From: a virus
Taxonomy: Duplodnaviria > Heunggongvirae > Uroviricota > Caudoviricetes
IMG/VR virus record: IMGVR_UViG_3300015615_000629
Coordinates: 1 to 64,000 of that record
Strand: one strand, 5' to 3'
Length of the DNA: 64,000 bases
Below, one piece after another: positions 98 through 62,720 of this stretch. A program made the position numbers and the translations under genes. The first letter of the stretch is position 1; the number at the start of each line of letters is the position of its first letter. The notes below the pieces were generated by a model. That model saw only the letters and a program-made list of their open reading frames with translations, had not been told where the DNA came from and made no database searches.

Positions 98-114
98 GGC
101 GATTCAGGTACAGA

Positions 115-429
115 TTAGCAGGAGGGAGGATTTTGGTTATAGTCTTGTTCTTGCAACCAATTCATTAACGATAACGCATCGTCGATTGGTGCTCCAGTCT
201 CATTCAGAATCTCAGCCCCACAATCGGCACAACCGTAATAGTTTACGGTTGCCTCGTCATCCCCACCATCCTCGTAAGAAACTTCGTCCTGGTTGTAATC
301 GAGAAAACACTCATTCTCGACTATTTTAATTGCAGTGATTGGACTGGTTTTGGTAGTGGTACAAGTCAAAACCTCTTCCAATTTCGTGCCACCGCAATCG
401 GGACAAATAAATTTGAGTGAATCAGCCAT
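115..429 (-). CDS. Zn-ribbon hypothetical protein
   Basis: CPDC and CADC pairs; start moved to ATG 429, 9 nt after the motif at 439. Confidence 0.7.
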   Translation of the reverse strand: MADSLKFICPDCGGTKLEEVLTCTTTKTSPITAIKIVENECFLDYNQDEVSYEDGGDDEATVNYYGCADCGAEILNETGAPIDDALSLMNWLQEQDYNQNPPSC

Positions 430-446
430 GCCTACTCCGGTACAGG

Positions 447-524
447 TTAGAGACAGCAGACGCAAATGCAATAAAAATAAATCGCAAATAGCGTCAAGAA
501 AATGAAATGCCCCGCCGTTCTCAT
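447..524 (-). CDS. 25-aa hydrophobic microprotein
   Basis: ATGA overlap with upstream stop; TAA fused to motif. Confidence 0.35.
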   Translation of the reverse strand: MRTAGHFIFLTLFAIYFYCICVCCL

Positions 525-1078
525 GCTGCCTCCTCCATTGGTTCGGGTTGTTCGGCGTCGGACTTCTGATAGGGACGCACCGGAAGAAACGCACAAACAG
601 AATTGCAATGCTTTATCTCCGTTGTTTCCCAACAACAGCATTGCAAACAGTTTAGTTTGACCATTGCCGTAACGCTACCCGCTTCGGCACGGTCAACAAC
701 TGGCAGGAATCGTAGGGTTTTCTCATCGCTACGCAATTCCTTGCGAATTGCCTCGTAGTTCTGATGAATCCAAGGCTTTTTGGCAAACTTTTCCTTGCGG
801 GAACGCTTACCCTTGCCGCCGAATCCTTCCGGTACAGGTGCTCCCTTGACACGACCCCGCTTGCCCTTGGGGGTCTTTAGTTCGATGCTCCAGTCCTTTA
901 CCCGAAGATATACGACTGAAGCAGTGATTTCTTTCAACCCTGCATTCTTCTGAGCATTGTAGTGGTTTGCCACTTGCTCAAAAAGCCCGCTGCGGTTCGA
1001 GAAAGCCGTTTCGTTCTCCAAAGTTTGAATGATTTGGAGAAACAACGGCTTGTCAATGATAATTGTTTTCTTGGACAC
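521..1078 (-). CDS. putative DNA-binding protein, paralog of 14616..15350
   Basis: GGAG SD; shared ...LRVKDWSIELKTPKGKRG pattern; C-terminal Cys cluster. Confidence 0.7.
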   Translation of the reverse strand: MSKKTIIIDKPLFLQIIQTLENETAFSNRSGLFEQVANHYNAQKNAGLKEITASVVYLRVKDWSIELKTPKGKRGRVKGAPVPEGFGGKGKRSRKEKFAKKPWIHQNYEAIRKELRSDEKTLRFLPVVDRAEAGSVTAMVKLNCLQCCCWETTEIKHCNSVCAFLPVRPYQKSDAEQPEPMEEAA

Positions 1079-1121
1079 GTTTTATCTCCCGTTTGGTAGG
1101 GAATTAGGTACAGATTAAAAG

Positions 1122-1191
1122 GGGGCCGGAAAGGAATTTAACCCCTACTTCCCGCATATCCGCGAGCGTGCTAACATTACACCACCGGCCC
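1122..1191 (-). tRNA. degenerate tRNA-like RNA
   Basis: GGGCCGG/CCGGCCC acceptor stem, D arm, CTCGC/GCGGG stem with a 6-nt loop, T loop TTAAATT. Confidence 0.6.
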
Positions 1192-1198
1192 CAAAGAG

Positions 1199-1561
1199 TT
1201 ATGCCGCCCGCTGAACCTCGTAATCGACGGCATCTTGAATCAACTTGGCCGAATCCACGTTAAGCATTCGGTCAAGTTCCGCTTTCAACTGGCTCCGCGA
1301 TAGGCTTTTCTTATCGCGTCCATCGGTAAAGCAGGTCCGCCCCTTGCGTTGGCTGATGGTGAACACAACTTGCTCAGGCAAACGGTTTTCACGCTTGGCA
1401 ATCCAAGGCGTGGTATCTTCGGCTGGCTTCGGCGGTTCCGCCACAGGGCGAAGGGTGATATACCGCCAGCAGAGCATAATGCTCTTATCCTTCCCCTTTA
1501 CCTTTGTCTTGATAAATGCCCGCTTGCCCGAAATGTTGACGTAATACTTACCGATTTGCAT
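1199..1561 (-). CDS. hypothetical protein
   Basis: GGAG SD before ATG 1561 (MQIGKYY). Confidence 0.7.
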   Translation of the reverse strand: MQIGKYYVNISGKRAFIKTKVKGKDKSIMLCWRYITLRPVAEPPKPAEDTTPWIAKRENRLPEQVVFTISQRKGRTCFTDGRDKKSLSRSQLKAELDRMLNVDSAKLIQDAVDYEVQRAA

Positions 1562-1601
1562 GTTTTTTCTCCGGTTAGGTGACGCCAGATTAGGTACAGA
1601 T

Positions 1602-1997
1602 TTAGGCTGCGAACGCCACCTTGATTTGATTTGAAGTAAACTTAAATTCTTTGCCGTCATCCCGCTTGGCATTTATCGGCATCTTGTGTCGGCGAGGAAC
1701 GTAGCCTGTAACGGTGTAAAAGCGACCGTCAAGCCGAAATTGTTTTCCAAGCCATTCAGGCTTTAACCCCTCAAGGCTAGCATAGAGAAGATAATCCTGT
1801 CGCTCTTTGGAGTTTACTTCTCCGTTACTGTTTTTTGTTTGAATTTCAACTTTGAGGGTTGCGAAGTTGGAGGAAAAAGTGCCAGGCTTTATCGCAATTG
1901 ACAACCCATGTTGTTCGGCCACAACTTGAAGGGCCTTTGCAATCTCTTGGTCAAGCAGACGAAGCGAAGCACGGTCGAGTGTGGTGATTGTGTTCAT
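1602..1997 (-). CDS. hypothetical protein
   Basis: ORF; ATG 9 nt after the motif at 2007. Confidence 0.75.
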   Translation of the reverse strand: MNTITTLDRASLRLLDQEIAKALQVVAEQHGLSIAIKPGTFSSNFATLKVEIQTKNSNGEVNSKERQDYLLYASLEGLKPEWLGKQFRLDGRFYTVTGYVPRRHKMPINAKRDDGKEFKFTSNQIKVAFAA

Positions 1998-2032
1998 GGC
2001 AGTTATGGTACAGATAAAGGTTTCCTATAAAC

Positions 2033-2072
2033 AAAAAGAAACGGTTCCAAAGGCGTCCCCTTGGAACCGTTT
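2033..2072 (-). terminator. intrinsic terminator
   Basis: AAACGGTTCCAA/TTGGAACCGTTT stem plus U-tract on the minus strand. Confidence 0.75.
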
Positions 2073-2107
2073 CACTGCAATTTATTCAAGCGTAATTAAG
2101 CCCCTAC

Positions 2108-2278
2108 TTAACCGAATGGAGGGCTTAGTTCGTAATGCTTGTGCTTTCGTCGCGTGGTTAGTTGTGGCCGTACTTGTTCCCGGACGGCCGCACGGGTGAG
2201 TCTAAGTTTGTTGCTTAACTTAGCACGTATGCCAAGCAACCAACAAACCATAGTGTAAAATAAACAGAAGCCTTCCAT
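2108..2278 (-). CDS. 56-aa small protein (not in ORF track)
   Basis: AGGAGG SD, MEGFCLFYTMVCWLLG...; between motif 2312 and a terminator. Confidence 0.5.
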   Translation of the reverse strand: MEGFCLFYTMVCWLLGIRAKLSNKLRLTRAAVREQVRPQLTTRRKHKHYELSPPFG

Positions 2279-2340
2279 CCCACCCTCCTGAGTTAGCCTT
2301 GCCCGTTTTCAGGTACAGATAAAGGGTTCCGCCATTAAAT

Positions 2341-2375
2341 AAAAAAACCCCGTTATTCACGTTGAATAACGGGGT
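2341..2375 (-). terminator. intrinsic terminator
   Basis: ACCCCGTTATTCA/TGAATAACGGGGT stem plus U7. Confidence 0.8.
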
Positions 2376-2736
2376 CGGACATGCCTGCAACTGGTTGAGT
2401 GCTTCGATGGGCCGGCAAGTTCCCAGGGTTTACTTTTTAACCGAACAAACCCCAAACGAGCGTAGGTCAACCCGTATGCTGGGTTCCGAAGCACCGCAAT
2501 TTAACACTTAGGTTGGTTTTCTGCGGAGGATTATCCGTCCGGATAAGTTTAGGGTCTGTCCAAGACCCAGCTGAGTTTTAGGTCGTCCGAAGACCGGATT
2601 CTTTTTAGGTCATACCAGGACCGGATAACCTTATCGCGGCTCCACTTCGTCACTCATCGCAGGCTGCCGCCACACAACTCCAGAGTGCCTCCTCCTTCGT
2701 TGTACCGTCTGGGCATAGACGGACGACTATGATTGC
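2376..2736 (-). ncRNA. candidate structured ncRNA with repeated GGUC-stem hairpins
   Basis: No ORF of 60 aa or more; bracketed by motif 2746 and a terminator; several local and long-range stems. Confidence 0.5.
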
Positions 2737-3491
2737 TCTTGACTTGGTACAGGTTGATTACGGCCAGTCTTCAACTCTTGGGCGTAATTCCTGATTATTT
2801 CGATTGTTTGTTCTCGCCCTTCGACAACCCCCTCAACATAGGCTTTCATGCCGATAATTCGCAAAGCATCGACATTTTCTCTCGCCCGCACAGAAACCGT
2901 ATAACCGCTGCCAAGGCTACCGTTTGCAGCCCTATTGTTCTCAATCGTCAACTTAAAATGCCAACGATTTTCAAACTTTTGCTTAAACGCCTTGGTCTGA
3001 GCCAATTCGGCAGGAACGTTTTCGTGAAGGATTGTTTCCATGCCAATCTCGGTACAGGTTGGGCATAACCAACCATCGGGGTCGCCATAATTGGCATTAG
3101 GATTTTGCAAAAACCAACCATTGATTTCGGCAAGTATCTTGGCTTTCTTGAATGTTTCACCATAAAACACCCGTTCATCGCCGCACTTGCAGCATTCAAC
3201 ATCGCAGCAATCGGAACCGACCGATAACTCATCCCAGCCACACGTTGCACATATCCAAAAGGTGCCATCGGACTTTTCGACGATATCGTTGATGCTGGTC
3301 GAGCGTACTTTCAAGTCGCCAAAAACTTTCACCTTTTCGTTGTCACCCCAATAATGGTCAACATTATTGGTTAGCCAAAAGACCTCCTCAAGGTCGTCAG
3401 TGTCCACTTCGGCTACAAGTTCATAGCCTTCGGGGAATGGCGGTGCCTCAAGAAACCCGCTCCGGTCAACAAAATGATAAAGTTTGCTCAT
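2727..3491 (-). CDS. YodL-like N-terminal domain + Cys-rich segment; internal start at 3041
   Basis: DLEEVF..TN...RSTSINDIV...GW pattern; internal motif 3051 lies 9 nt before in-frame ATG 3041. Confidence 0.6.
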   Translation of the reverse strand: MSKLYHFVDRSGFLEAPPFPEGYELVAEVDTDDLEEVFWLTNNVDHYWGDNEKVKVFGDLKVRSTSINDIVEKSDGTFWICATCGWDELSVGSDCCDVECCKCGDERVFYGETFKKAKILAEINGWFLQNPNANYGDPDGWLCPTCTEIGMETILHENVPAELAQTKAFKQKFENRWHFKLTIENNRAANGSLGSGYTVSVRARENVDALRIIGMKAYVEGVVEGREQTIEIIRNYAQELKTGRNQPVPSQEQS

Positions 3492-3823
3492 GGTGAATTA
3501 GGTACAGGTTTTTTCCAGGCCAATGTTTCGTCCCGACGCTTCTGATGGCTCTTATACGAGGCTTTCTGAAGCACACGTAATTTATAGCCAATCCGTTCCA
3601 ATTCACGGTACAGGTCGGCGTACTCTTCCGGCTTCGCCCGTCTGGTTGTATAAACCAACCCGTAATAGTCAGCACCACTATGCTGACCAACGTGCATGTA
3701 ACTTTGGCAATAAATTCCGTCATTATCCGACGGAACTTCAGGGAATAGAGCGATAATCTGCCCGCTCTTATCCCTAAACTTGCGGAAAACTACAACGGTT
3801 TCTTCGGTGTCTTGCTCAATCAT
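3488..3823 (-). CDS. conserved phage hypothetical protein
   Basis: VVFRKF..IIALFP..SYMHVGQH; motif-led start. Confidence 0.75.
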   Translation of the reverse strand: MIEQDTEETVVVFRKFRDKSGQIIALFPEVPSDNDGIYCQSYMHVGQHSGADYYGLVYTTRRAKPEEYADLYRELERIGYKLRVLQKASYKSHQKRRDETLAWKKPVPNSP

Positions 3824-3852
3824 AACGAATTCGGTACAGGTTGTGAATTGAT

Positions 3853-3960
3853 TAAAAATGCCCCTGCCTTGAATTGTAGCTCGGAAGCCTCATGTTCAAG
3901 GCAGGGGTCTTTTCTAACCGGCGTCTAGGCCGGCAACTTGGCGGTCACTAACCGCCGTGA
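3853..3960 (-). ncRNA. candidate ~110-nt small RNA
   Basis: Starts about 10 nt after motif 3970; two GC hairpins and a 13-bp terminator-like stem with U-tract; no ORF. Confidence 0.45.
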
Positions 3961-3998
3961 GACTTTTACGGTACAGATAAAGGATGTTTTTTCAAAAT

Positions 3999-4036
3999 AA
4001 AAAAAGAGGGGAGAGGGCCGAAACCCTCTCCCCTCT
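3999..4036 (-). terminator. intrinsic terminator
   Basis: GAGGGGAGAGGG/CCCTCTCCCCTC stem plus U7. Confidence 0.85.
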
Positions 4037-4051
4037 CGACACCGGAGAAGT

Positions 4052-5215
4052 CTAGGCGGCAAGGTGCAACACGTTTGCCGCTGCCGTATCCAGGGCCAAC
4101 CGCTCATCGCCGTGAGCGTCAAGGGTCTGGCTGTATGCCGTAATCCCCTGAACCGCAGCCCAAGCACTTAGCGGGTTGTAATTCCACTTTTCAGCGTCCT
4201 CGACACCAAGGCCAATCGCAGCACGCAACACCTTCTGGCCAAGGGCTTGAATACGCTGCTTGTACAGCGTCTTGACGACATCCTCGACATCCTTGCCGAG
4301 CACCAAACCCTTTGCGGCCTGAATCTTGCGAACGTAAGGCGTCGAATCCGCCGACAACGCATCGGCCATCGCCGATTGAATCAACGCCGTGACCTTGACC
4401 ATGTCCAAGTCACCCTTATGAATCAATCGGGTGCGGTTAATCTTGCTGGCATCCCACACGATATGGTTGCTGCAAGTCCAACGGTAGAAGAAACTTGTGA
4501 CCGAAACGCTACCAGCACCGACCTCGCTGTTGCTGATAAACACACCTCGGCCCAAACCGCCATCGGTTCCGTCGTCAATCGGACGGTCATTGTTCACCAG
4601 ATAGGTGAACATATCGTGGTCCGAAAGATACAGGCCAGCGGGGGCAATCTTGTCGCCAACCTGAACAATCGTGCGACAACCCCGAACGTCATCCTCCGTA
4701 GCAAGGCGGCTGCCGGGTTGATTCGGCAAGGCGGGGCGGGCGGGAGGGTTCTTCCAACCCCAATTGTCCGCAAACCGATTCACCACGCGGAGGATATCGC
4801 TATTCCACACACGGGAATAGATTTGCGTCGTCGCGGCATGGAGCGAAGCCCCATCGCTGCCGGCTCGAAGCAAGCATTGGGCATTCCCTTCGCGGGCGGC
4901 GTCGTCAAAGCCGTAATTGATACAGGGGGCCGCCAAGTGAGCGGGAACCTTCCGCATCGATTCGGCGCTCATGCCCGCACGGGCACAGATTTGCGAAAAC
5001 GCATAATGCGTCGGCACTGCTTCGCCCTTGGACGAGCGAATAACGATATCGCCGGCATCGTTCGCAGCCGCACGGAATTCCGCCCAAGGCACCTCGGCCG
5101 TGCGGGAACTTCGCTTGTAAATTTCGGCTTGACGTTCCATTTCGGCCAACGTCCAAAAGCGTTCGTCGGCGGGACGTTCGGCCCATTGTCGGTGAGCCTT
5201 CATTAGTTCGGTCAT
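4052..5215 (-). CDS. DUF932/DUF945-family protein
   Basis: HYAFSQIC and ISNSEVGAGSV..FFYRWTCSN motifs; GGAG SD. Confidence 0.7.
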   Translation of the reverse strand: MTELMKAHRQWAERPADERFWTLAEMERQAEIYKRSSRTAEVPWAEFRAAANDAGDIVIRSSKGEAVPTHYAFSQICARAGMSAESMRKVPAHLAAPCINYGFDDAAREGNAQCLLRAGSDGASLHAATTQIYSRVWNSDILRVVNRFADNWGWKNPPARPALPNQPGSRLATEDDVRGCRTIVQVGDKIAPAGLYLSDHDMFTYLVNNDRPIDDGTDGGLGRGVFISNSEVGAGSVSVTSFFYRWTCSNHIVWDASKINRTRLIHKGDLDMVKVTALIQSAMADALSADSTPYVRKIQAAKGLVLGKDVEDVVKTLYKQRIQALGQKVLRAAIGLGVEDAEKWNYNPLSAWAAVQGITAYSQTLDAHGDERLALDTAAANVLHLAA

Positions 5216-5444
5216 GACTTTTCTCCAAGTGTCGTGTCAGAAACCACGCCGACTTCGGTACAGGTTAACCGTTTGCCGGCCTCTGTCAAGGTTCTGCAAG
5301 CACCGTGCTTGCCACGCCAACTTCAGGTACAGATAAATCTCAGATTTAAGCCTATAAGAGAGGATTTAATCCCTCTCTAAAGAAAAAAGGATTAAAAGCA
5401 TGATCCCATTAAAGAGATTCATACTTTTAATCCTATTAAAAGGC

Positions 5445-5602
5445 CGCCACAACTAGGACTCGAACCTAGAATTCTTCCCTTTGCTTGACTGGTCTGACCA
5501 AGCAAACACAAATCTTCAGGACTCTTATCCTTTAGCGCTACGGATAAGGACCAATCCCTAAATTTGCAAGAAAGCGTGTTGCCAAATTACTACTACTGTG
5601 GC
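5445..5602 (-). tRNA. tRNA-like RNA (possible Cys-GCA) with 84-nt insertion in the anticodon loop
   Basis: GCCACAG/TTGTGGC acceptor, CTTTC/GGAAG anticodon stem, CTAGG-TTCGAGT-CCTAG T arm. Confidence 0.7.
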
Positions 5603-5988
5603 ATTGGTTCAGGTACAGATAAACGTTCCAAAAGCATATCTGTATAGTAATCGGCAGTCTGGTAGATAAATCCCTCTCGTCTTGAATTCTGCATACTTAT
5701 CAACCATTGAACTGTGTTGTGAGCCACCACAACCATCACCTCAGTGACGATAAGTAATTTGTGCCGGTTCATCTCAAGATCATGATCATACTTTGCCCTA
5801 GTAAGATCAAGATGATCGTTTGTGTAAATCTTTACGCCATCAGTTCTTAGCGTAAGAGAAACAAGACTGCCGTCTTGACACAAAGCAAACTTCTCTTTTA
5901 ATTTACACAAACTTTCTTTAGTTATGTGTACCTCGGCACACAAGGCCATGTGTAGACCTTCATGTGTTGCATCACAGAGAAGTTTCAT
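5593..5988 (-). CDS. hypothetical protein
   Basis: ORF in an ATGA-coupled chain. Confidence 0.65.
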   Translation of the reverse strand: MKLLCDATHEGLHMALCAEVHITKESLCKLKEKFALCQDGSLVSLTLRTDGVKIYTNDHLDLTRAKYDHDLEMNRHKLLIVTEVMVVVAHNTVQWLISMQNSRREGFIYQTADYYTDMLLERLSVPEPMPQ

Positions 5989-6224
5989 TCCATGAGTTCC
6001 GCTTGTAGTTTACAGCATTCTAAAGCCGATAGTTCGGCTACCAATGAGCAAGCCTTTTCAGTCCATTCCTTAACTTTTGGTTTAAGAGAGATGGCCTGCT
6101 TAGACAGAGCGGCATCTTTAATGGCTAGAATGTAAAGCCTTGCCCGCTCAAACGTTGGCTCATTAACACTTGCTGCACGAGCCGCCAACGTAACCGCTGA
6201 ATCAGCATAGTTATCAATTATCAT
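5985..6224 (-). CDS. hypothetical protein
   Basis: ATGA-coupled ORF. Confidence 0.65.
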   Translation of the reverse strand: MIIDNYADSAVTLAARAASVNEPTFERARLYILAIKDAALSKQAISLKPKVKEWTEKACSLVAELSALECCKLQAELME

Positions 6225-6442
6225 CCTGCCATTAGCCCTTGAGGAAGAAATGGAGTTTGATTTTTAACTGCCAGCCTAGCATAAGCCTTAGAAAAACTTT
6301 TGCTTGGCCGAAGAGTACGCCACGCCTTACGTTCTGCACGTAAGTAATGTGCAGTTTGTAGACGTAACTCATGTCCTCGTGGGACATTAAGATGATTCGA
6401 CCAGTATCGAATAAACGATCTGGTTGTGAATTTTATATTCAT
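6221..6442 (-). CDS. hypothetical protein
   Basis: Start moved to ATG 6442 (9 nt after motif 6452; ATGA overlap). Confidence 0.6.
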   Translation of the reverse strand: MNIKFTTRSFIRYWSNHLNVPRGHELRLQTAHYLRAERKAWRTLRPSKSFSKAYARLAVKNQTPFLPQGLMAG

Positions 6443-6849
6443 GAGGGTTTTGGTACAGATTCTTCTTTTAGAAAATTCTTCTTCCAATTGTCATCGTGGA
6501 TGCTCACTTCACCCGCCGATTCCGTTGGATTCCCTCTGTTGCAACGCCAAATTTCAATTGTTCCGTTTGGCCGAATTGCATAGTAATAGGCAATGTCGCC
6601 GTGGAAATCCTTGCTAATTCCGATGTTGGTATAACCGTCCTTTAGCTTGGCACACAGCCATGCGGCGGCATATTCAGGGTCATCTAAACCTCTGTTTTTG
6701 TCAAAGTCTAGCAAATGGGGAATGATGGTCGCAAGTACCCCACTCGGCCCCTGCGGATAACCATCGCAATGCCGGTACAGCAAAGCCTCGAAATTGGACA
6801 ATCGAGACTTGTTTTCGTAGTAAAAACCAATTTGACAGCGAGTGCTCAC
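6439..6849 (-). CDS. conserved phage hypothetical protein
   Basis: MSTRCQIG...YRHCDGYP motif. Confidence 0.75.
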   Translation of the reverse strand: MSTRCQIGFYYENKSRLSNFEALLYRHCDGYPQGPSGVLATIIPHLLDFDKNRGLDDPEYAAAWLCAKLKDGYTNIGISKDFHGDIAYYYAIRPNGTIEIWRCNRGNPTESAGEVSIHDDNWKKNFLKEESVPKPS

Positions 6850-6888
6850 AGATTTAATTCCTGGGGTTTGTTTCGTTTGTGGTACAGA

Positions 6889-7059
6889 TTATTCAAAATG
6901 CAAGAACGGATGATCCTTGTCCAATACGTCATCCTCTGGACTGAATTCAAGAGTAGCCTTGAAAAACTCCTCCTCCGGAGTAAAAATTGTTACGTCCGAA
7001 TTCAACTGCGTATCAGACAGTTTCGTAAGTATCGTCAAAGCCAAGTCACGGTATGTCAT
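6889..7059 (-). CDS. 56-aa hypothetical protein (not in ORF track)
   Basis: GAGGA SD; MTYRDLAL...HPFLHFE; stop fused to motif 6881. Confidence 0.6.
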   Translation of the reverse strand: MTYRDLALTILTKLSDTQLNSDVTIFTPEEEFFKATLEFSPEDDVLDKDHPFLHFE

Positions 7060-7087
7060 TTATTTTATCCTCTTGCTTGTTCGTTAA

Positions 7088-7348
7088 TCACAGAATGGCT
7101 CCTGCCAGGGATTCCCGTAAGTGGAGGGCAATTCGTTCCAATGCTTTCTCCATGCCTGCCACATAAGCCATGATATAGGCTGTATAGAGCCTATCTGAGT
7201 TGGGAGAAATCAGCATGTCATCCCCAACCACATGCCAAACGCCCCCGCCAGATTCTAATTTCAAATCGCAGCCATAGGCCGTATTACACGCTTCGATTGC
7301 GTGGCGAGCCAACCGACGCTCTTCATCTTTGAAGGTGCAAAGAATCAT
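7088..7348 (-). CDS. hypothetical protein
   Basis: AAGGA SD. Confidence 0.65.
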   Translation of the reverse strand: MILCTFKDEERRLARHAIEACNTAYGCDLKLESGGGVWHVVGDDMLISPNSDRLYTAYIMAYVAGMEKALERIALHLRESLAGAIL

Positions 7349-7393
7349 ACTTTTAATTCCTTTGGAAGGAGTGTCTGGCCATTACGGTACAGA

Positions 7394-7639
7394 TTAAGAC
7401 AATGTTTTTGCCATTGCAATCAATTTGTTGCCGAATTCAATGGCTTTTTCAGGTGGAAGCCCAATCCATGTCGTAGGCATTCCAAAATCAATAATTACCT
7501 GCCTGCTCTGAGGGTCAACGCCCATTCGCACATTCAATTCGCCCTCGTCATCCGGAGATATCCTGCCATCTGGAAACTGTCCAGTTGGCCCCGGCTCAGA
7601 CTCGAAAAATTCTTTGAAACGCTCGCCTTCACCTGCCAT
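7394..7639 (-). CDS. conserved hypothetical protein
   Basis: GPTGQFPDG..DDEGEL..VIIDFG..WIGL pattern. Confidence 0.7.
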   Translation of the reverse strand: MAGEGERFKEFFESEPGPTGQFPDGRISPDDEGELNVRMGVDPQSRQVIIDFGMPTTWIGLPPEKAIEFGNKLIAMAKTLS

Positions 7640-7642
7640 GTA

Positions 7643-7846
7643 TCACCAATTAATGTATTCTCGCAACTGAGATTCGTCCACCCTTGCCCTCGTCACACCC
7701 TTAATGGTTTTAACTTTATCGTATTCCTTTTCTTGAATCTCCCTGAATTCGCCAAGAAAAGACCAACTGTAATACCCCTTGGGCTCCCGACCTAAAGCAC
7801 GCATGACTTTAGAACGGGCTCGGTGACTTTTAATGCGAATGAACAT
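7643..7846 (-). CDS. hypothetical protein
   Basis: Start moved to ATG 7846; the longer ORF runs through the tmRNA-like gene. Confidence 0.6.
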   Translation of the reverse strand: MFIRIKSHRARSKVMRALGREPKGYYSWSFLGEFREIQEKEYDKVKTIKGVTRARVDESQLREYINW

Positions 7847-7848
7847 AG

Positions 7849-7980
7849 TGGACACGCTGGGAATTGAACCCAGATCCGTCATAGTTGCAGATTTACCACA
7901 AAGTCTTTGTAAACGCATTTAACTTTGTTGGAATCCAATCCAGGCAATCTCTCGGCTATACGTCGATACCTTTCGTGCCC
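7849..7980 (-). ncRNA. ssrA: mini tmRNA-like RNA (132 nt)
   Basis: 5' GGGCACG-AAAGGTATCGAC, 3' CTGGGTTCAATTCCCAG-CGTGTCC-A; G3.U70 and A73 alanine identity; no D stem. Confidence 0.7.
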
Positions 7981-7999
7981 GTGTAAGTTATGGTACAGA

Positions 8000-8350
8000 T
8001 TACTCAGGGTCAGTATCGTAACCACCACAATTTTCAAGAAAATCTGCCAATGAACTTAGCCATTGCAGGAATTCTTTTGGCCCTTCTCCCCACCCGCCGT
8101 CTTCAATGACTTTAGTTAAAGTATCCGGAATATTGACAATAGCCGCACGAAGTTTCTGACTGCATTCTTTTGCAGCGTCAGAATCCATTACATAAGGAAT
8201 TCGTGGGTAATTGTAATCAAATTCCGCATGGCCCGTGTTTGAAAGCGGTAACTCAGCCTCACGAAAAACCAGCCCAAGAAGAATCCTGCCAGCAGAATTT
8301 ACGTCGAATTCTTCAATCTTTCTGTTGTTTGGGTAATAAGTTGTTCCCAT
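8000..8350 (-). CDS. hypothetical protein
   Basis: TGATG-coupled ORF. Confidence 0.7.
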   Translation of the reverse strand: MGTTYYPNNRKIEEFDVNSAGRILLGLVFREAELPLSNTGHAEFDYNYPRIPYVMDSDAAKECSQKLRAAIVNIPDTLTKVIEDGGWGEGPKEFLQWLSSLADFLENCGGYDTDPE

Positions 8351-8583
8351 CAGTCCACCCCAAACAATTCCCGAATCTTGGCCAACACCTTTTCCTTGTG
8401 TTCGGCCCGACTCAAGTTTTCGTCAATGTCCTGAATGTATTCGGCAAATTCCTTTTCATACCATTCGTAAAAGGTTTGCCGTTCAAGCACATCAAGAATC
8501 TTCTCAGCGTCCATTCGTGGCTTAGCCAAACGACGAGCCATCATTTCACACGCTTCTTGTTGTGTTAAAAGTGCGGTTTTCAT
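8350..8583 (-). CDS. hypothetical protein
   Basis: ATG 8583, 9 nt after motif 8593. Confidence 0.65.
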   Translation of the reverse strand: MKTALLTQQEACEMMARRLAKPRMDAEKILDVLERQTFYEWYEKEFAEYIQDIDENLSRAEHKEKVLAKIRELFGVD

Positions 8584-8900
8584 GCTTTCTCCGGTACAGA
8601 TAAAATTTCTTTCCAACCCTTATCCAAATCCTCAAACGTAACTAGCCAACGCTCTTTACGTTTGCCAGTTGAAAAGTCCGCTACGTCTTGTTGTGCTGTA
8701 AATCCATAAAGGTGAGCACAAGGCTTGCCAATATCAAGCCCTAATGCCGCTAACCCTTTACGAAATGTACCGAAGAGTTGACCCAACAAACAGTTACGCT
8801 CATCGTCCATGCGTAACTTATCTTTATTTATTTTGTCCCGCCAGCCAGGAACTTTATTATCTAAAAGTTCCCAGCCGGCAAGGATTCTTTGTTGAATCAT
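8580..8900 (-). CDS. conserved phage hypothetical protein
   Basis: LLD..PGWRDKIN...CLLGQLFG pattern. Confidence 0.7.
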   Translation of the reverse strand: MIQQRILAGWELLDNKVPGWRDKINKDKLRMDDERNCLLGQLFGTFRKGLAALGLDIGKPCAHLYGFTAQQDVADFSTGKRKERWLVTFEDLDKGWKEILSVPEKA

Positions 8901-8913
8901 ACTATTTTAAGGG

Positions 8914-9297
8914 ATGGAAACTTGCCCTATTTGTTTGAAGAAAACTAAAAATAGAACGCTGTGCCCATCCTGCCAAGTGAATTGCCGTCGCCGAGATATG
9001 AAAAAGAAACTTGTTGAATACAAGGGTGGAAAATGTGAGAAGTGCGGTTACGACAAATGTCTCGAAGCACTAACTTTTCACCATAGAAATCCTAAAGATA
9101 AGAGTTTCGTTATCTCTGGAAAACATTCCAAAAAACCTGCCATTCTATTTAATGAAGTGGACAAATGCGATTTACTTTGTCACAACTGCCACAACGAGGT
9201 TCACGCACAAGACCACGTGGAAAAATGGAAACGTTGGGATAATTATGTTGCCAATAAACCTCCTAAAATTAAAAAAGAGGTTATTGGAGCAAAGTAG
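8914..9297 (+). CDS. HNH endonuclease (free-standing homing type)
   Basis: GGKCEKCGY..LTFHH..P..K...KCDLLCHNCH motif. Confidence 0.85.
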   Translation: METCPICLKKTKNRTLCPSCQVNCRRRDMKKKLVEYKGGKCEKCGYDKCLEALTFHHRNPKDKSFVISGKHSKKPAILFNEVDKCDLLCHNCHNEVHAQDHVEKWKRWDNYVANKPPKIKKEVIGAK

Positions 9298-9368
9298 GAC
9301 ACCAGGGAATCGAACCCTATTCATCGCCCAGGATATAAGCCTAGCCACGATCCAACCGTCCGTGTCCC
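9295..9368 (-). tRNA. tRNA with UAU anticodon (Ile-AUA reader), atypical D arm
   Basis: GGGACAC/GTGTCCT acceptor, CTAGG-CTTATAT-CCTGG anticodon arm, TAGGG-TTCGATT-CCCTG T arm. Confidence 0.65.
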
Positions 9369-9374
9369 CTGGAA

Positions 9375-9686
9375 TCAAGCCGCCTCGGCTATTCTTTCTT
9401 CAAAGAATACCGGCCGCTCAACTGTTATGAGAGTTGTCGTCTTAAAAGAACAAGCACGACGCCCCACAAAAGTAATTACTACCGAATACGGACTGTATTG
9501 ATAGCATTCTCCCAACGCTTCCGCCATCAATCGGGCCGCCTTCAAAGCAGAAAACTTCTTCGGCCGACCACTCAAAATGCTCTTTGAACGATCTGCTACC
9601 GATTGATGAAACAAGGTGGTTCCCTTTACGAAACCATACCCCGGAACGTAATCGCCACTCTTCACTCGACAGGCTTCAACTTGCAT
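9375..9686 (-). CDS. hypothetical protein
   Basis: GGAG SD. Confidence 0.65.
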   Translation of the reverse strand: MQVEACRVKSGDYVPGYGFVKGTTLFHQSVADRSKSILSGRPKKFSALKAARLMAEALGECYQYSPYSVVITFVGRRACSFKTTTLITVERPVFFEERIAEAA

Positions 9687-9715
9687 GATGTTACTCCGAA
9701 GAATTCCGGTACAGG

Positions 9716-9892
9716 TTAGGTTTCACGGGCCTCAAGTGCTTCCGCAAATATCTCTTGTTCAAATGTCATCCCTGCAAGGAATGCCCGATACGCAATTTCT
9801 TCAACCTCATGCGGAATCACCTCACATCGGAATTCCTGCCGAAACCATTTCCTAAACCGTTCTTTATATTCCTCCGGCTTGGGTTGAGCCAT
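9716..9892 (-). CDS. 58-aa hypothetical protein (not in ORF track)
   Basis: MAQPKPEEYK...; stop fused to motif 9708. Confidence 0.55.
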   Translation of the reverse strand: MAQPKPEEYKERFRKWFRQEFRCEVIPHEVEEIAYRAFLAGMTFEQEIFAEALEARET

Positions 9893-9913
9893 TGTACCAC
9901 TTTCTGTGTTTTG

Positions 9914-10318
9914 TCAAGTCCCAACAGAACTATACATGCAAGCAGTCGCCAAAAGAATTATCGACTGAGGTAAATCAAATAATGTATTTACCTCTAGAAC
10001 CAGTTGCCCGTTTTCCCTCTTAACCCCTAATCTCTCAAGGAGTTGCGTATCAAACTGTGGATCGCCACCACCCGTCAAATTCCGCCGATATTCCCAAGTA
10101 TCAGCAAAATCTGACAGTATAAATCCTCCATCTTTCTTCACCAAAAACACATCGATGCTTTCACCATTGGGACGAATAAATGGTGTTACAAGTTGAATTC
10201 GTTCGTCATTAGCATCCACAACCTTCCCAACTTGGTAAGAAAGTAAACCCTTTATTTTGTCTCGCAAGGTTTCCACGTTAAAATCCAGTTCTTTGTGTGC
10301 GGTTTTGATGCCAGCCAA
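9914..10318 (-). CDS. DUF1828-like protein
   Basis: TPF..PNGE.I.VF....GFILSD motif. Confidence 0.65.
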   Translation of the reverse strand: MAGIKTAHKELDFNVETLRDKIKGLLSYQVGKVVDANDERIQLVTPFIRPNGESIDVFLVKKDGGFILSDFADTWEYRRNLTGGGDPQFDTQLLERLGVKRENGQLVLEVNTLFDLPQSIILLATACMYSSVGT

Positions 10319-10432
10319 TCGGCAAAATGTTCGTCAAACCCTGCCTCGCCCTCACAAATTAAAAAATTCGGTTTTTCAATTTTAGGATTAAAAAACCAGC
10401 CCGCCTTGTCATGCAAAACCTTTAACGACATT

Positions 10433-10744
10433 TTATTTGCTATCCGTCACTTCAACAGAATGAAGGGTGTTATCTGGCCAGAATGAATCCGAAGTCGTCG
10501 TGATAATCTGAAAAGGAACTTCTTCATCATCTTCATAAAGATGATCACCTACCGAAACAATGTAAGTTTGTTCACTAGGATCCTCCTCGATGTCCGCTTC
10601 GCAGTTTTTCTGCTTGCCTTTCACCCAGCGTTCCAGAACTCCATGAATATCATCTTTATCAGTGCGAACAATAACATGCCGCTTAATTCGCACAGGAATT
10701 AATTGGGTTATTTCAATCGTACAGTAAACCTTACGCTCGCTCAT
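10433..10744 (-). CDS. hypothetical protein
   Basis: GGAG before ATG 10744. Confidence 0.6.
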   Translation of the reverse strand: MSERKVYCTIEITQLIPVRIKRHVIVRTDKDDIHGVLERWVKGKQKNCEADIEEDPSEQTYIVSVGDHLYEDDEEVPFQIITTTSDSFWPDNTLHSVEVTDSK

Positions 10745-10896
10745 TGCTCCGCTCCCAGACATAAGACAGAAGTGTCCCAAACCCAAAAATGACAACAAAA
10801 CACTTGGCTAGGTTCGCGGCACACTCAAACAACGGATGCCCGCCAAAACCTAAAAAAGCGAAAATTACAGTTGTGAAAAAGAAAATCAGTGTCATG

Positions 10897-11136
10897 TTAA
10901 TCGTTAATGATTAAAAGTTTGCCGCCCTTGTCCCCAACAAACCACCAGCCAACATATTCGCCGTCCCTCACATCCCCACTTTCAAAAGTAAAGGTTTCTT
11001 GGTCTTCCGGAAAAGACACAGTTATTTCGTGAACGTTCGCTTTATATTCCGGAAGATGTTGCAACGTACTGATTTCGGCAGTTATTTGCCGTCTGCCTGC
11101 CTTTTCCGTTACTGAAAAATGTTTGGAGTCAATCAT
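10897..11136 (-). CDS. hypothetical protein
   Basis: ATG 9 nt after motif 11146. Confidence 0.7.
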   Translation of the reverse strand: MIDSKHFSVTEKAGRRQITAEISTLQHLPEYKANVHEITVSFPEDQETFTFESGDVRDGEYVGWWFVGDKGGKLLIIND

Positions 11137-11591
11137 GCCGTTTCCGGTACAGGTTCAGCACGTAAGTCCTGCCATGCCAAACCATTCAAATTACTCAACA
11201 GTCTGAACCCATTGAGCCAATCGTCAATTATACTAAACGTATTACGTTTCTCAATCCTAAATCTTTGCACCAATTTAAGATTAAGTGGCACACCATAGTA
11301 ACCCATTAAGCCAGTTGCTGTTACGTCAATTACCTGCTCGCCGTCCACACACCACCCATGTAGAATCGGTACACCTTCAACTTCGGCATATCCTTCTACA
11401 TAAGTCAACCCCTTTTTCTTCGCCAAATGAAAAGCATTATCAAAACAACGATGCGGCGTCATTATACGATAACCTTTTGGCAAAGTATTAGGAGAATATT
11501 CCCGCCCATGCTCAAGTACAAATTGAGCAAATGTAGGAATTGCATATTTTCCCTTGCCCATCTGATGAAGAATTTGTTCAAGATTGCTCAT
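11133..11591 (-). CDS. transglutaminase-like hypothetical protein
   Basis: CFDNA...YVEGYA...HGW...IDVT (Cys-His-Asp) pattern. Confidence 0.55.
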   Translation of the reverse strand: MSNLEQILHQMGKGKYAIPTFAQFVLEHGREYSPNTLPKGYRIMTPHRCFDNAFHLAKKKGLTYVEGYAEVEGVPILHGWCVDGEQVIDVTATGLMGYYGVPLNLKLVQRFRIEKRNTFSIIDDWLNGFRLLSNLNGLAWQDLRAEPVPETA

Positions 11592-12010
11592 TTCTTTTCC
11601 CCTGGATAATGAATCGTTTTCCAAGTATCTTGCAATTCAAGCCGAGCCCTACTTACGTCTTGAAGATGTTCTTGATATTCGGGATCGTCATCTACCACAA
11701 CCTGTTCAGCCGTGGTAACATACGTCCCACGAGCCATCGCTGCAATCACCTTCTTAACCAAATTCAAAGTGTCTTCCGTTACCTGCCCGACACAAACGCC
11801 AAGATCAAGACTCTGTTTGGGAACCCAAATCGCTTGCCCACAACGTAACCATAACGGACGCCCTGGTACAGGTACATCGGCTGGCCCATTCTGTGGATAA
11901 GAATCGCCAGGAACTACCAACATAATAGGTTCTTCATCAAGTTGACGAACCACAAGCCATTCAACGTCCAACTCAATTGCTGAATTAAATACAAATAAGT
12001 CACCAATCAC
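11588..12010 (-). CDS. hypothetical protein
   Basis: GTGA-coupled ORF. Confidence 0.6.
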   Translation of the reverse strand: MIGDLFVFNSAIELDVEWLVVRQLDEEPIMLVVPGDSYPQNGPADVPVPGRPLWLRCGQAIWVPKQSLDLGVCVGQVTEDTLNLVKKVIAAMARGTYVTTAEQVVVDDDPEYQEHLQDVSRARLELQDTWKTIHYPGEKK

Positions 12011-12300
12011 TTCGACACCTTTGTTACTTTGCCGTAAATGCTTGTGGTCCAACCGTTTACGCCACCACGATTGTTTCCTATTTGATATCGCTTGCCCTGG
12101 ATTGCCAATACTTTATGCACGTATTGACGACCAGAAACTTTACACAAAACCATATCCCCAACAGATAAAGAAGAAATATCAGGGGATACAGTAACCAGAT
12201 CGCCACTGTGAATCAATGGCACCATCGAATTGCCCCGAGGCCGGAAACTTACTTCCTTGCCAGCCTCTAAATCAGAAATGTAAGAAGTCGCCCATCCCAT
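12007..12300 (-). CDS. S24/S26-family peptidase-like protein
   Basis: GNSM.PLI.SGD.V and VHKV motifs. Confidence 0.75.
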   Translation of the reverse strand: MGWATSYISDLEAGKEVSFRPRGNSMVPLIHSGDLVTVSPDISSLSVGDMVLCKVSGRQYVHKVLAIQGKRYQIGNNRGGVNGWTTSIYGKVTKVSK

Positions 12301-12318
12301 GAGCAATTTAGGTACAGG

Positions 12319-13057: not shown

Positions 13058-13063
13058 GGAAAG

Positions 13064-13135: not shown

Positions 13136-13144
13136 AAAGAACCC

Positions 13145-14579: not shown

Positions 14580-14615
14580 GGCTATTCAGGTACAGATTAG
14601 AAAGGCAAATCTCCA

Positions 14616-49420: not shown

Positions 49421-49437
49421 GCCACTCACGGTACAGG

Positions 49438-50406: not shown

Positions 50407-50778
50407 CTAGTATCTTAGTAATCGTCGGCGAATTTTCTGGTACAGGTTGGACAACTCTACCACAAAAAGGTTCGCAGGGTGTTTATTGGCCATAGCCATT
50501 GCTTCGGCATGTCCAATTAAAGCCTCTTCTCTGGTTGCGTATCTTCTTTGAAATTGGTGTAGCTCATCTTGATTGTCACAAAATATCATTGTTTCATAAA
50601 GAATAGGCACATCCCCACGAAAGGAATGGTCAATTCCCAAGAATACAGTGCTTACAAGGCGGCCATTAACTCTATTACGGGCCACCTGTCTATCTTGGCG
50701 TTCAAACCACACCCCGAATTCTTCCGAGGTTGCAGGTACAGGTTTGCCGTCTTTTTCGATCCACAAGAGATTGTTCAT
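50407..50778 (-). CDS. conserved phage hypothetical protein
   Basis: VSTVFLGIDH...LYETMIF motif. Confidence 0.75.
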   Translation of the reverse strand: MNNLLWIEKDGKPVPATSEEFGVWFERQDRQVARNRVNGRLVSTVFLGIDHSFRGDVPILYETMIFCDNQDELHQFQRRYATREEALIGHAEAMAMANKHPANLFVVELSNLYQKIRRRLLRY

Positions 50779-50806: not shown

Positions 50807-51508
50807 ATGCACAATCCCTATTCGGCTCGTGTTGACGTACAATATGGTGGCTATCCGGCAATAATCATTGCCCCGCATGGGTTTGACGACCCCAATGTGG
50901 GTTTTATGGCACAAAAAATAGCCGACAGATTAGACTGTTTTTGTGTAATTAACAATGGTTGGCAATGTTCAGCGGAGTTCGATTATACCGCACAAAAAGC
51001 AGATTGCAACTCAATCAAACATTGTCAAGACGAAGTTCTAAATTTCGAATTTTTAAAACCAATCGAACAAATGGCAGAACAATGTAAAGCAAATTTTGGT
51101 TTTTTCTATTGTCTGATTTTGTGTGGGATTTCAGATAATATTAGGCGAATAATCGACAGAAACCTAGATTTGGTAATAGGTTGGGGAATGGGCTCGCCAC
51201 CTAGTTTAAGTTGCATGAGGATCACAAAAGATTCATTTATTAGCCATTTGGAAGATTTTAAACTCACAACTTATGAGGCAGGCTCTGGAAGTCGTTATTC
51301 GGGCAGAAAATACAATTCTTTAAATCAATATGTGTCTACACAAAAAGGTATTACACAAAGCATGCAGGTGGGAATTGTGCGGCATTTAAGGAGAAATAAG
51401 GATATAGCAGAGATAACTGCCTACAAAATAGCAGAATCTTTAAAGGAAACAGTCCGAATTGGGGACAATTATTATGGTCAGGTTAATACAAGAATATGCA
51501 CCTACTGA
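50807..51508 (+). CDS. Zn-amidohydrolase-like (N-formylglutamate amidohydrolase fold) protein
   Basis: IIIAPHG..D motif; TAAATA 5 nt before ATG. Confidence 0.5.
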   Translation: MHNPYSARVDVQYGGYPAIIIAPHGFDDPNVGFMAQKIADRLDCFCVINNGWQCSAEFDYTAQKADCNSIKHCQDEVLNFEFLKPIEQMAEQCKANFGFFYCLILCGISDNIRRIIDRNLDLVIGWGMGSPPSLSCMRITKDSFISHLEDFKLTTYEAGSGSRYSGRKYNSLNQYVSTQKGITQSMQVGIVRHLRRNKDIAEITAYKIAESLKETVRIGDNYYGQVNTRICTY

Positions 51509-60552: not shown

Positions 60553-60762
60553 GTCTTCTGTTCCTTTTTGTAAGTCTTCGTTTGTTAACTGATCTAGCCA
60601 GCGGTCGTTTTCTGTTAAATGAATCAAGTTTTCTGTGTAAACTACAACCCAACCTGTAGAACATCCGGCAACCGAGTCTATGTGTATTGCCGGATGTTCT
60701 TTAATCCATTCGTCCAAACAAGAGAAACTTTTCCCTTTTATAAATTCTACTTTTTGAGCCAT
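60538..60762 (-). CDS. hypothetical protein (in frame with Pth2 across TAG)
   Basis: ORF track; ends ACG TAG. Confidence 0.5.
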   Translation of the reverse strand: MAQKVEFIKGKSFSCLDEWIKEHPAIHIDSVAGCSTGWVVVYTENLIHLTENDRWLDQLTNEDLQKGTEDVEHT

Positions 60763-60768
60763 ATTTAT

Positions 60769-61344
60769 TTAATTTCCGGCGACCTGCGTTTCAACAGATT
60801 CACCATATTGGGCGTATCCAACTTTTTGGATTCTATCTTTAGTTGCAGCGGTTAAAGCACTGCCACGAGAATAGTCCAAAGAACCGTCAGCCTTCAAAAC
60901 TGGCACGATTCCATTTAAAACCGGTACAGATTTGAATTGGCCTTTGCTGGTGCGAATCTTAATCGTTTCGACAGTAGCAACCGGCTCATTGTAGATTACT
61001 TTGTAACTTACGTCAAGTGCCGATGGGGCATCTGGCGTAGGAACAATTTTCGGCGAGCGGGGAACGCTCGGAACCCTTTGTGGTTGTTGGGGTTGCGTTC
61101 TAGGAGCAGCATAATAATACGGGGCTTGAATTCCATAACCTGGGCTGCAACTTCCCCCATTACAGGAACCGCCACCACATGAACCGCTTCCACAACCACC
61201 AGACCACCCGCCACCACAGCTACCGCTGAAACTTCCGCCACTTCCACAACCTCGGCCACAACCGCGACCGCCATGCCCACAGGCATTTGCGAAAGAAACG
61301 AAAATAGTCAAACAAGACAAAACAACAAGTGCTTTCTTAAACAT
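60769..61344 (-). CDS. secreted Cys/Gly-rich protein
   Basis: GGAGG SD; signal peptide; CGGG repeats. Confidence 0.7.
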   Translation of the reverse strand: MFKKALVVLSCLTIFVSFANACGHGGRGCGRGCGSGGSFSGSCGGGWSGGCGSGSCGGGSCNGGSCSPGYGIQAPYYYAAPRTQPQQPQRVPSVPRSPKIVPTPDAPSALDVSYKVIYNEPVATVETIKIRTSKGQFKSVPVLNGIVPVLKADGSLDYSRGSALTAATKDRIQKVGYAQYGESVETQVAGN

Positions 61345-61391
61345 AAGAACCTCCATCGCTATCTATGGAGGCTAATAACATTTTTCCCAAT

Positions 61392-61425
61392 AAAAAAAGG
61401 CAGGTCATTTAAGACCTGCCTTTTT
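61392..61425. terminator. bidirectional intrinsic terminator
   Basis: AAAAAGGCAGGTC/GACCTGCCTTTTT. Confidence 0.8.
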
Positions 61426-61440
61426 AATGGTTTTGATTGT

Positions 61441-61758
61441 CTAACGGCCGAACTGTTGCAAATACAACTTGCGGGCTTCTGGAATACCGCAGTTGTTGTT
61501 GCGGGCCAAACGGCGAACCCGCTTCCAGTAAAGCACCGAAGCACGACCAACGGCTCTTTTGGCAGCAGGAGTCATTCGACGACGGCCGTCGTCGGTTTCG
61601 GTCGCTTGACCGTTGCTCGGTTCGCTTCCATTTTCGGAGAAAGTAACATCGAGATTCTTCATGCCGAGGCTATCGGCAATCGACCTCAACTCCGAAAAAC
61701 AGTTAAGCAACTTTCCGAGAGTGGCCGCTTCGCTCTTTGCTTTGGTCTTCATTTTCAC
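61441..61758 (-). CDS. basic hypothetical protein
   Basis: GAGG SD; RRMTPAAKRA...W motif. Confidence 0.65.
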   Translation of the reverse strand: MKMKTKAKSEAATLGKLLNCFSELRSIADSLGMKNLDVTFSENGSEPSNGQATETDDGRRRMTPAAKRAVGRASVLYWKRVRRLARNNNCGIPEARKLYLQQFGR

Positions 61759-61767
61759 CTCAAATCT

Positions 61768-62655
61768 TTAAGTAGACGATTCTTCGCCGAGGACTTTCTC
61801 GGCAACCTCAAGCAAAACACGTTGTTTGCCCGGCAAATCTTCGGTTGCCGCAAACAATTTCGACGTTAGAGCCTGTTCGGGCTCAATTACGCTCAAAATG
61901 GCTGCCAGTTGTTCAACCGAATGGGCGTAACTCTTGGCACGATCCAAAAATCCTTTTTGGACTTTGGTTTGTACCGAAGAAACCAAGCAAACCGCTTGCT
62001 CTTCCGGAGTCAGATTGTTAATCACAAACTCCATGATTTTCGTAGAAACCGCTTTTTCCTCTTCCGTGGAAGGGGTGAAAGTGTTTCCACGCCAAGAACC
62101 AACAGCCAATTCTGAGAAAGAACGAAGGCCGGAATTCGGCGTAAAATCAACTTCTTTCTCAACCAGACGCACGGCATCCGGCTTCTCAACACCAAGGTCA
62201 ACCAGAAGGTCAACCAAAGCATCGGCTGGCTCTTGGTCTTCGCCAACTTCGGGCATCTTTACCTTATACTTTTCCTTAACCGCGTAAATTGCCGAATTGT
62301 AAGGCTTGCCGCCAACTTCGGTCTTTACCGTTGGGTTTTCAAGAACACCAAACTGCCACAGCAATTCAGCGTAAAGAGCAAACAAAATGTCCTTAACAAG
62401 GGCATTGTCAGTCTCTTCTTTATCTTTGAAGAGCTTAAGCAATTCCTTTGCGGCTCGCCACTCATTAAAGACAGACGATTGCTCTTCGTCCAACTCCAAT
62501 TCTGGACGTTCTTTTTCCTTCTTTTTGGCTGGCTTTGTCGCAGCCTTACTCACCATCTTGAGGGCATCAAGAGGATTCTTGGGCTTAACGACAGCGATTG
62601 CTGGCTTTTCGGTTTCAGGGGCAGCAACAGGATTTCGAGTGGTGGCCTTAGCCAT
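61768..62655 (-). CDS. hypothetical protein
   Basis: AAGGA SD; 295-aa ORF downstream of motif 62701. Confidence 0.75.
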   Translation of the reverse strand: MAKATTRNPVAAPETEKPAIAVVKPKNPLDALKMVSKAATKPAKKKEKERPELELDEEQSSVFNEWRAAKELLKLFKDKEETDNALVKDILFALYAELLWQFGVLENPTVKTEVGGKPYNSAIYAVKEKYKVKMPEVGEDQEPADALVDLLVDLGVEKPDAVRLVEKEVDFTPNSGLRSFSELAVGSWRGNTFTPSTEEEKAVSTKIMEFVINNLTPEEQAVCLVSSVQTKVQKGFLDRAKSYAHSVEQLAAILSVIEPEQALTSKLFAATEDLPGKQRVLLEVAEKVLGEESST

Positions 62656-62720
62656 GATTTCAATTCCTTGACTTGGGTTGGGTTCCGTAACGCAGTTTAC
62701 GGTACAGGTTGGGCTCCCGT

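Follow-up and report, generated by a model that had tools for sequence, protein, structure and literature searches.

A strand-specific AYCTGTACC motif as a probable single-box promoter, and a divergent sigma factor as its candidate reader, in a T4-like jumbo phage

Introduction

The window analysed here, 64,000 nucleotides (nt) in full, comprises bases 1-64,000 of the 572,026-bp circular genome of a T4-like jumbo phage (IMG/VR record IMGVR_UViG_3300015615_000629). It holds the nonamer AYCTGTACC dozens of times on a single strand, often at one fixed distance from a start codon. What does this element do, and which protein reads it? A first-pass annotation took it for a promoter that provides each of many small genes with a separate, leaderless messenger RNA (mRNA). 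We conclude that the motif is very probably a promoter and that a phage sigma factor is most likely its reader. The layout of one separate RNA per gene is not supported.

The question bears on the timing of about a thousand genes in huge phages without an RNA polymerase of their own. The present genome encodes a T4-type major capsid protein, and 40 tRNAs are called in its 572 kb. Searches of this genome, which a very divergent polymerase could escape, gave no beta or beta-prime domain, no T7-type polymerase and no DFDGD-type catalytic motif. A phage RNA polymerase was rejected as reader of the motif because no such polymerase was found. Sigma factors were noted in huge phage genomes by Al-Shayeb et al. 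(PMC7162821), and a term search of that paper returned no description of a phage promoter. Our literature search found no description of the motif or of the sigma family discussed below, and both appear undescribed. The single-box kind of promoter is already known; new would be a clade-wide, fast-diverging family of such elements, very probably promoters, that is most likely paired with an undescribed phage sigma.

Distribution of the motif

Scanning the window gives exactly 66 copies of GGTACAGRT and none of AYCTGTACC on the plus strand, so that the whole array (107..62709) reads on the minus strand. This agrees with the earlier hand count of about 66 copies in one orientation. The Markov expectation is 0.2-0.7 copies for the window, in line with the claim of less than one by chance, and every coordinate quoted in the first-pass annotation is a motif position. 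The reported cluster of about 58 copies at the window start was also counted correctly, with 58 in 1-36 kb. They form a dense part amid small genes (107..34734, minus strand) that runs on over the circular junction, and 51 further minus-strand copies lie at 555-572 kb of the genome. Across 572 kb there are 128 copies, nearly all of them in one arc of about 90 kb that extends from 555 kb over the junction to about 70 kb. Density is highest where the genes are smallest, and the motif is nearly absent from 75-550 kb, the home of the capsid and terminase genes. One-mismatch variants occur at background level; the nine bases are therefore read strictly. The extended context is WWA-AYCTGTACC-DDA, with a pyrimidine|purine (Y|R) step nine bases further on.

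Perfect conservation and strand bias would also suit an oriented operator, similar to the stoperators of mycobacteriophage L5, or a recombination or packaging signal that is Chi-like or resembles the exchange sites (PeSLs) of T4. In addition, 14 pairs of copies have 22-44 nt of flank in common, as expected of cassette duplication, and the core palindrome GTAC is depleted elsewhere (observed/expected ratio (O/E) 0.55). However, these readings predict neither a fixed distance to ATG nor the Y|R step, and the orientation of the motif tracks the genes and not the replichore. In the related phage LR756511, it likewise follows gene direction and not the genome strand. Cassette exchange can itself be a side effect of promoters, as for PeSLs (PMC4122927). 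We consider an operator or recombination signal very improbable.

Where the arc begins, at 555409/555436 and 555670/555697 of the genome, two motif pairs stand back to back on opposite strands in a duplicated 42-nt unit, and their plus copies aim antisense to small genes. Comparable pairs occur in LR756511 at 635/717 and 19104/19176, and several in the relative G025.

Evidence for a probable transcription start downstream of the motif

Copies that are not followed by ATG carry a Y|R step at the position of the ATG in 52 of 76 cases, compared to a frequency of 0.215 at other offsets (p=2e-18). The window alone gives 20 of 36 (p=1.5e-5). A pyrimidine at -1 and a purine at +1 are the usual start-site preference in bacteria, and translation cannot account for the step in copies without ATG. 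Counted from this predicted start, the box would occupy -18 to -10. The motif alignment holds at most 0.09 bits upstream of -24 and no information beyond -25. We could not detect a -35 signal, and no word is enriched at -48 to -22 except T-tracts.

At 554.5-572 kb of the genome, all 13 terminators are followed by a motif copy and no host-type promoter of at least 14 bits is present, so RNA must restart there. Copies directly after a terminator make up 14 of 51 in this region and 4 of 58 in 1-36 kb; like all per-gene motif and terminator counts given here, these depend on our own gene caller and terminator rule and are approximate. The window contains three such terminator-then-motif cassettes (2007..4040, minus strand), in which U-tracts at 2041, 2347 and 4005 precede copies at 2007, 2312 and 3970, respectively. 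The proposal that a single-box promoter starts RNA about 9 nt beyond the motif is thus supported by the Y|R step, the absence of -35 information, the copies after terminators and the recurrence in relatives described below. The signature of a fixed start distance is strong, though indirect, in three genomes. As far as sequence can tell, AYCTGTACC is very probably a single-box promoter with a predicted transcription start 9 nt downstream.

A signal at the RNA level would explain some of the same observations. An endonuclease that cuts long transcripts 9 nt after the motif would give a constant spacing both to ATG and to the 5' end of a tRNA-like RNA, and the overlap of 29 copies with an upstream stop, together with the lack of terminators in most intervals, would suit this cut or a translation re-initiation element. 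Against both stand the copies that lie right after terminators, or back to back on opposite strands at the border of the zone, in places with no other promoter. Neither is favored by the match of the Y|R step to the usual bacterial start-site preference or by the many copies with distant, Shine-Dalgarno (SD)-led starts 21-45 nt off. We give a signal of this kind very little credence.

The transcript layout derived from the promoter reading has to be revised. The expectation of one promoter per gene is overstated for 1-36 kb, where a copy lies no more than 90 nt from a start in only 38 of 80 minus-strand genes; at 554.5-572 kb the corresponding figure is 37 of 44. Separate transcripts are not supported either, with an intrinsic terminator in only 6 of the 57 inter-copy intervals in 1-36 kb. 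The likely output is a set of overlapping, nested RNAs with staggered 5' ends, not one RNA per gene. Three promoter classes divide the genome, namely the motif, a host-type class and a late-type class. Host-type promoters (TTGACA-N16/17-TAnnnT, often with TGTGC before the -10 box) are common from 36 kb on and nearly absent from the dense arc. A gene-free stretch on the minus strand of the window (16112-16560) combines two copies of the motif with a strong host-type promoter (16539) and a hairpin that resembles a terminator, and the local GC skew changes sign there.

Start codons, leaders and structured RNAs

The fixed spacing to start codons holds genome-wide, with ATG following after 9 nt in 43 copies and after 10 nt in 4 more; leaderless starts are predicted at 37% of copies. 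For the window, the 22 cases reported at exactly 9 nt are confirmed in number as ATG starts and need correction in membership, as the list includes a GTG start (32560) and misses copy 15460. The ATG of copy 15460 opens an ORF (open reading frame) of 2 codons, and that of copy 25523 opens just 25 codons. All four window copies with a 10-nt spacer were recovered. Most of the 9-nt starts indeed lack an SD, as seen from their weak pairing (median -0.8 vs -4.2 kcal/mol, p=5e-9), and yet 7 of 47 genome-wide have GGAG or GAGG in the spacer. These seven could also be translated from read-through RNA. The SD-led distant starts are borne out at 21-45 nt for copies 1107, 1593, 5257, 6881, 9708, 27060, 33486 and 62701. 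The same applies to the overlap with upstream stops and to the copies encoded as PVP at C-termini. The first A of the motif lies in an upstream stop codon in 29 copies, and 6 copies, read in the PVP frame, belong to the 3' end of a coding region whose stop codon shares bases with the ATG.

Leaderless mRNAs are supported, as a prediction, for about a third of the copies, but they are not special to the motif. Outside the arc, 53 ATGs have the late-type box TA[ATG]ATA 4-5 nt upstream, as against none inside it, which makes leaderless starts a habit of the whole genome and not a property of the motif. In relatives, leaderless starts are found at only about 15% of copies.

Two structured RNAs begin at or near predicted start sites, as the first-pass annotation had noticed. 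The tRNA-like RNA (5445..5602, minus strand) begins at 5602, 9 nt from the motif, and its first base is the predicted +1 of copy 5612. It has an acceptor stem, D- and T-arms and a structured insert of about 100 nt in the anticodon region, and is called neither by ARAGORN, also with introns allowed, nor by Rfam. The tmRNA-like RNA (7846..7980, minus strand, 135 nt) matches Rfam RF00023 with 47.3 bits. The match begins at 7980, 11 nt from the motif, and with the predicted +1 at 7982 the RNA would have a 2-nt leader. Its ends are tRNA-like, and its interior of about 53 nt is too short for a normal tag region.

The candidate reader P0001

P0001 is a divergent sigma70-family protein of 315 amino acids (aa) that is encoded within the arc (49438..50385, minus strand). 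It matches PHROG 351 (E=3e-16) and, weakly, Pfam Sigma70_r2. The AlphaFold model (predicted local distance difference test, pLDDT, 91) comprises sigma regions 2, 3 and 4, as expected of a full-length sigma, and its top Foldseek matches are all sigmaA or RpoS chains of transcription complexes. A HMMER search yields 287 divergent relatives, a word-based search found no homologue, and the family alignment is too variable for locus scans. The sigma70 residues that read the -10 and -35 elements seem replaced or variable in P0001, as judged by eye from the alignment, which is consistent with a new specificity.

The locus itself carries the motif. One copy (50439..50447, minus strand) lies 53 nt upstream of the SD-led sigma start and would suggest positive feedback; a second one upstream (50735..50743, minus strand) lies within an ORF at 50407-50778. 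A further copy sits on the sigma stop codon (49430..49438, minus strand), 9 nt before the ATG of the adjacent AAA gene, whose start would be leaderless. A weak host-type promoter, TTGCAA-N16-TATAAT (50982..51009, minus strand), is located 624 nt upstream of the sigma start. With 14 bits it reaches the 90th-95th percentile of the per-kb null, and it is a possible primer for the first sigma synthesis. The neighbours of the sigma gene, a RuvB-like AAA ATPase (48305..49420, minus strand) and an ArdC-like gene (47054..47764, minus strand), form with it a neighbourhood (window 47054-50385) whose three members are adjacent in most relatives.

In total, the genome has four sigma-like genes. The 184-aa one is gp55-like and suits a separate late class. 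Truncation has left the FliA-like one with 89 aa and no region 4; in its relatives the protein is of full length. In LR756511, which has the array, the 168-aa one was not seen. This leaves P0001, and from co-occurrence and elimination we think it probable that P0001 reads the motif. The truncated FliA-like gene (L002:1465-2958, genome about 153.3-154.8 kb) is immediately downstream of a 387-aa ORF, which by eye resembles TnpB.

Motif and sigma in related phages

A pattern scan for the exact motif in other viral contigs returned 18 single, chance-like matches, and 20 capsid-related contigs show no enrichment. The motif is thus lineage-specific, and relatives had to be sought via the sigma and AAA genes. 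Ten loci were reached through sigma family members with 28-33% identity to P0001. Each has a repeated motif of its own on the gene strand, in which a TGTAC core is joined to a private flank, such as AAGTTTGAT-TGTAC-CAT, GAGTTAGGA-TGTAC-CTAG or TGATTTAG-TGTAC-GGT. A TGTAC-core motif is present in 11 of 11 sigma-picked relatives, and in 13 of 13 relatives the sigma gene, or the operon that holds it, has a copy upstream. For less biased sampling, loci were also picked via the neighbouring AAA gene, and two of these relatives have both sigma and motif. Both are present in L182; in G025 there are 73 copies, and the sigma gene, 60 kb away, still has a copy upstream that is followed by a host-type promoter (TTGACA-N16-TATGCT). 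L213 has the sigma together with a TCTAC variant. No TGTAC context recurs around distant RuvB-like genes.

Three large relatives have dense, oriented arrays like that of the present phage. The 595-kb LR756511, a curated complete genome (PMC7162821), contains 134 matches to AGCTGTAC, whereas the control gives 8. On either strand the matches point in the direction of the genes, with 55 plus copies in the first 19 kb and minus copies beyond. The Y|R step recurs there in 55 of 95 copies, and leaderless ATGs occur as well; G022:C90 shows the step in 33 of 43 copies (p=4e-14). In a 546-kb contig, that phage's own variant occurs 50 times and the Y|R step falls one base later. In several relatives the box takes the form TG-TACnnT; TACnnT resembles the -10 hexamer of sigma70, and the TG stands one base nearer to it than in host extended -10 promoters. 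In the present phage the final T of TACnnT has been lost.

Several observations weigh against P0001-family proteins as the readers. Most relatives were picked via sigma, and kin share traits. A Mantel test of motif-profile distance against sigma sequence distance gives r=0.14 (p=0.22, n=12), restriction to sigma regions 2.3-3.0 gives r=-0.02, and neither full nor partial Mantel tests relate the motif significantly to sigma or AAA distance; the identities of 21-49% are probably saturated in this comparison. G028 (323 kb, 64% complete) has 35 same-strand copies of GGTACGGTT, a GGTAC variant, and no P0001-family gene on the contig, and G026 and G027 (21-33% complete) have a TGTAC motif and likewise no such gene. 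Incompleteness may explain these cases, as the sigma of G025 lies far from the AAA gene. No such motif flanks the distant sigma homologues of G009 and G021. Finally, in most relatives no host-type promoter that could prime sigma synthesis was found within 1 kb of the sigma gene.

One alternative is a promoter that is read by another factor and that merely drives P0001. The reader could be the host holoenzyme with an activator or appropriator like MotA/AsiA, a host alternative sigma or another phage sigma. The negative co-variation test and the contigs with motif and without sigma are in line with it, as is the resemblance of TG-TACnnT in several relatives to a host -10 box. The small-gene arc also looks like an early region, and an early region normally requires no prior phage protein. 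On the other hand, the T at -7 is unconserved in the present phage (A57/T44/G26), its host-type promoters look different and lie elsewhere, and the motif-only contigs are incomplete. The flanks are constant within a phage and different between phages, which points to a phage-encoded reader. We regard another factor as a serious but unlikely alternative.

Proposed mechanism and comparison with known systems

We favor, with moderate confidence, a phage-specific single-box promoter that is read by host core RNA polymerase with P0001 as the explanation of the whole. The holoenzyme would recognise AYCTGTACC at -18 to -10 without need for a -35 box and start RNA at the purine nine bases downstream of the motif. 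Where this purine is the A of an ATG, a leaderless mRNA would result; elsewhere, the RNA would have a short SD leader or be a structured RNA. Over the small-gene arc of about 90 kb, some 120 copies would give staggered, mostly nested transcripts. As the sigma gene bears the motif, a little sigma would amplify the programme, the first of it probably being made from the host-type promoter. The motif class would be early-to-middle, between host-sigma and gp55-type late promoters. For this timing and for priming by a host promoter the chances are about even, and injected sigma may be an alternative start.

In contrast to promoters of host sigma70 (group 1), the motif lacks the -7 T and a -35 element, and its TG directly adjoins TA. 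It resembles the gp36/gp55 type in having one box near -10 without -35, in a phage with a sigma70-family factor encoded and no RNA polymerase found. The consensus of phiEco32 gp36 promoters is AATGTA, centred at -11.5 (PMC12276001). Shared with these are the single box, the TGTA and, as proposed here for P0001, the use of host core with a phage sigma. Unlike in phiEco32, TGTA is at -15 to -12, the box is longer and invariant, and it is found along a small-gene arc and not at late genes. We found neither AATGTA at -11.5 nor a gp36 homologue, and a tblastn search of P0001 against 50,697 phage records gave no phiEco32 match.

The T4 late promoter, TATAAATA, is a -10-only element read by the phage sigma gp55. 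The two have in common a -10-only box in a T4-like phage, but here a separate gp55-like gene and the TA[ATG]ATA class outside the arc exist, and the model of P0001 is of a complete sigma. The motif is not a TATAAATA-like box before virion genes, and the TA[ATG]ATA class fills that role. SPO1 gp28 promoters are bipartite. They differ from the motif, which has no -35 signal and is predicted to drive its own sigma gene. As a phage sigma, gp28 serves a middle class between host-sigma early genes and late genes (PMC3594737). A middle class is also what we propose here. Thermus phage phiYS40 is said to use host sigma-type promoters. The present box, unlike these, is phage-specific; the likeness lies in the leaderless mRNAs, here predicted. 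In phiYS40, many middle and late mRNAs start at AUG and are leaderless (PMC3594737). PeSLs of T4-like phages are repeated promoter/stem-loop units with common flanks between small variable genes (PMC4122927). The terminator-promoter repetition among small genes and the common flanks are similar, whereas PeSLs hold early promoters read by host sigma70.

More tentatively, a clade of 0.4-0.6-Mb phages may use a private promoter code for the small-gene, probably host-takeover, region. Each sigma would read only its own TAC-core variant and amplify its own gene, and at least 14 pairs would be mutually orthogonal with bacterial core. Should the variants prove orthogonal, they would reveal how bases upstream of -10 are read by sigma regions 2-3 and would be of use as expression parts. 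With a named sigma, a sharp target and a clade-wide series of variants now available, the proposal can be tested in vitro, and neither phage nor host needs to be cultured. In each genome, the box further locates the start codons and RNA 5' ends of more than 100 uncharacterised small genes and RNAs.

Additional observations

An alternative genetic code was rejected, as TAG and TGA terminate called genes and the code is standard. tRNAs with CTA, TAT and TCA anticodons (window 30802-30894 and 9294-9368, minus strand; genome 286239-286310) are possible suppressors, although TAG and TGA end many called genes. Some palindromes of four bases are strongly avoided at 75-550 kb of the genome, with O/E values of 0.07 for GCGC, 0.37 for AGCT, 0.42 for CGCG and 0.55 for both GATC and GTAC.

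A weak ribosomal protein S21-like gene of 84 aa is found at L169:1459-1713 (genome about 170.9 kb). In a search for host clues, no named relatives of this protein or of the 168-aa sigma were found, and the table of Al-Shayeb et al. gives no dominant phylum for LR756511 (PMC7162821). The 546-kb phage contig (P0007; L107 / L162) is filed in an archaeal metagenome-assembled genome (MAG) and in a Bacteriovoracaceae MAG, which are unrelated bins; its archaeal label is a binning error.

Iteron-like repeats were seen in three relatives. G009 has about seven copies of a CTACTATGTCGTC unit at 59.8-61.6 kb, G021 has tandem GTGTACTAC units at 0.4-2.3 kb, and L188 has 14 copies of GTCGGCCAATCT.

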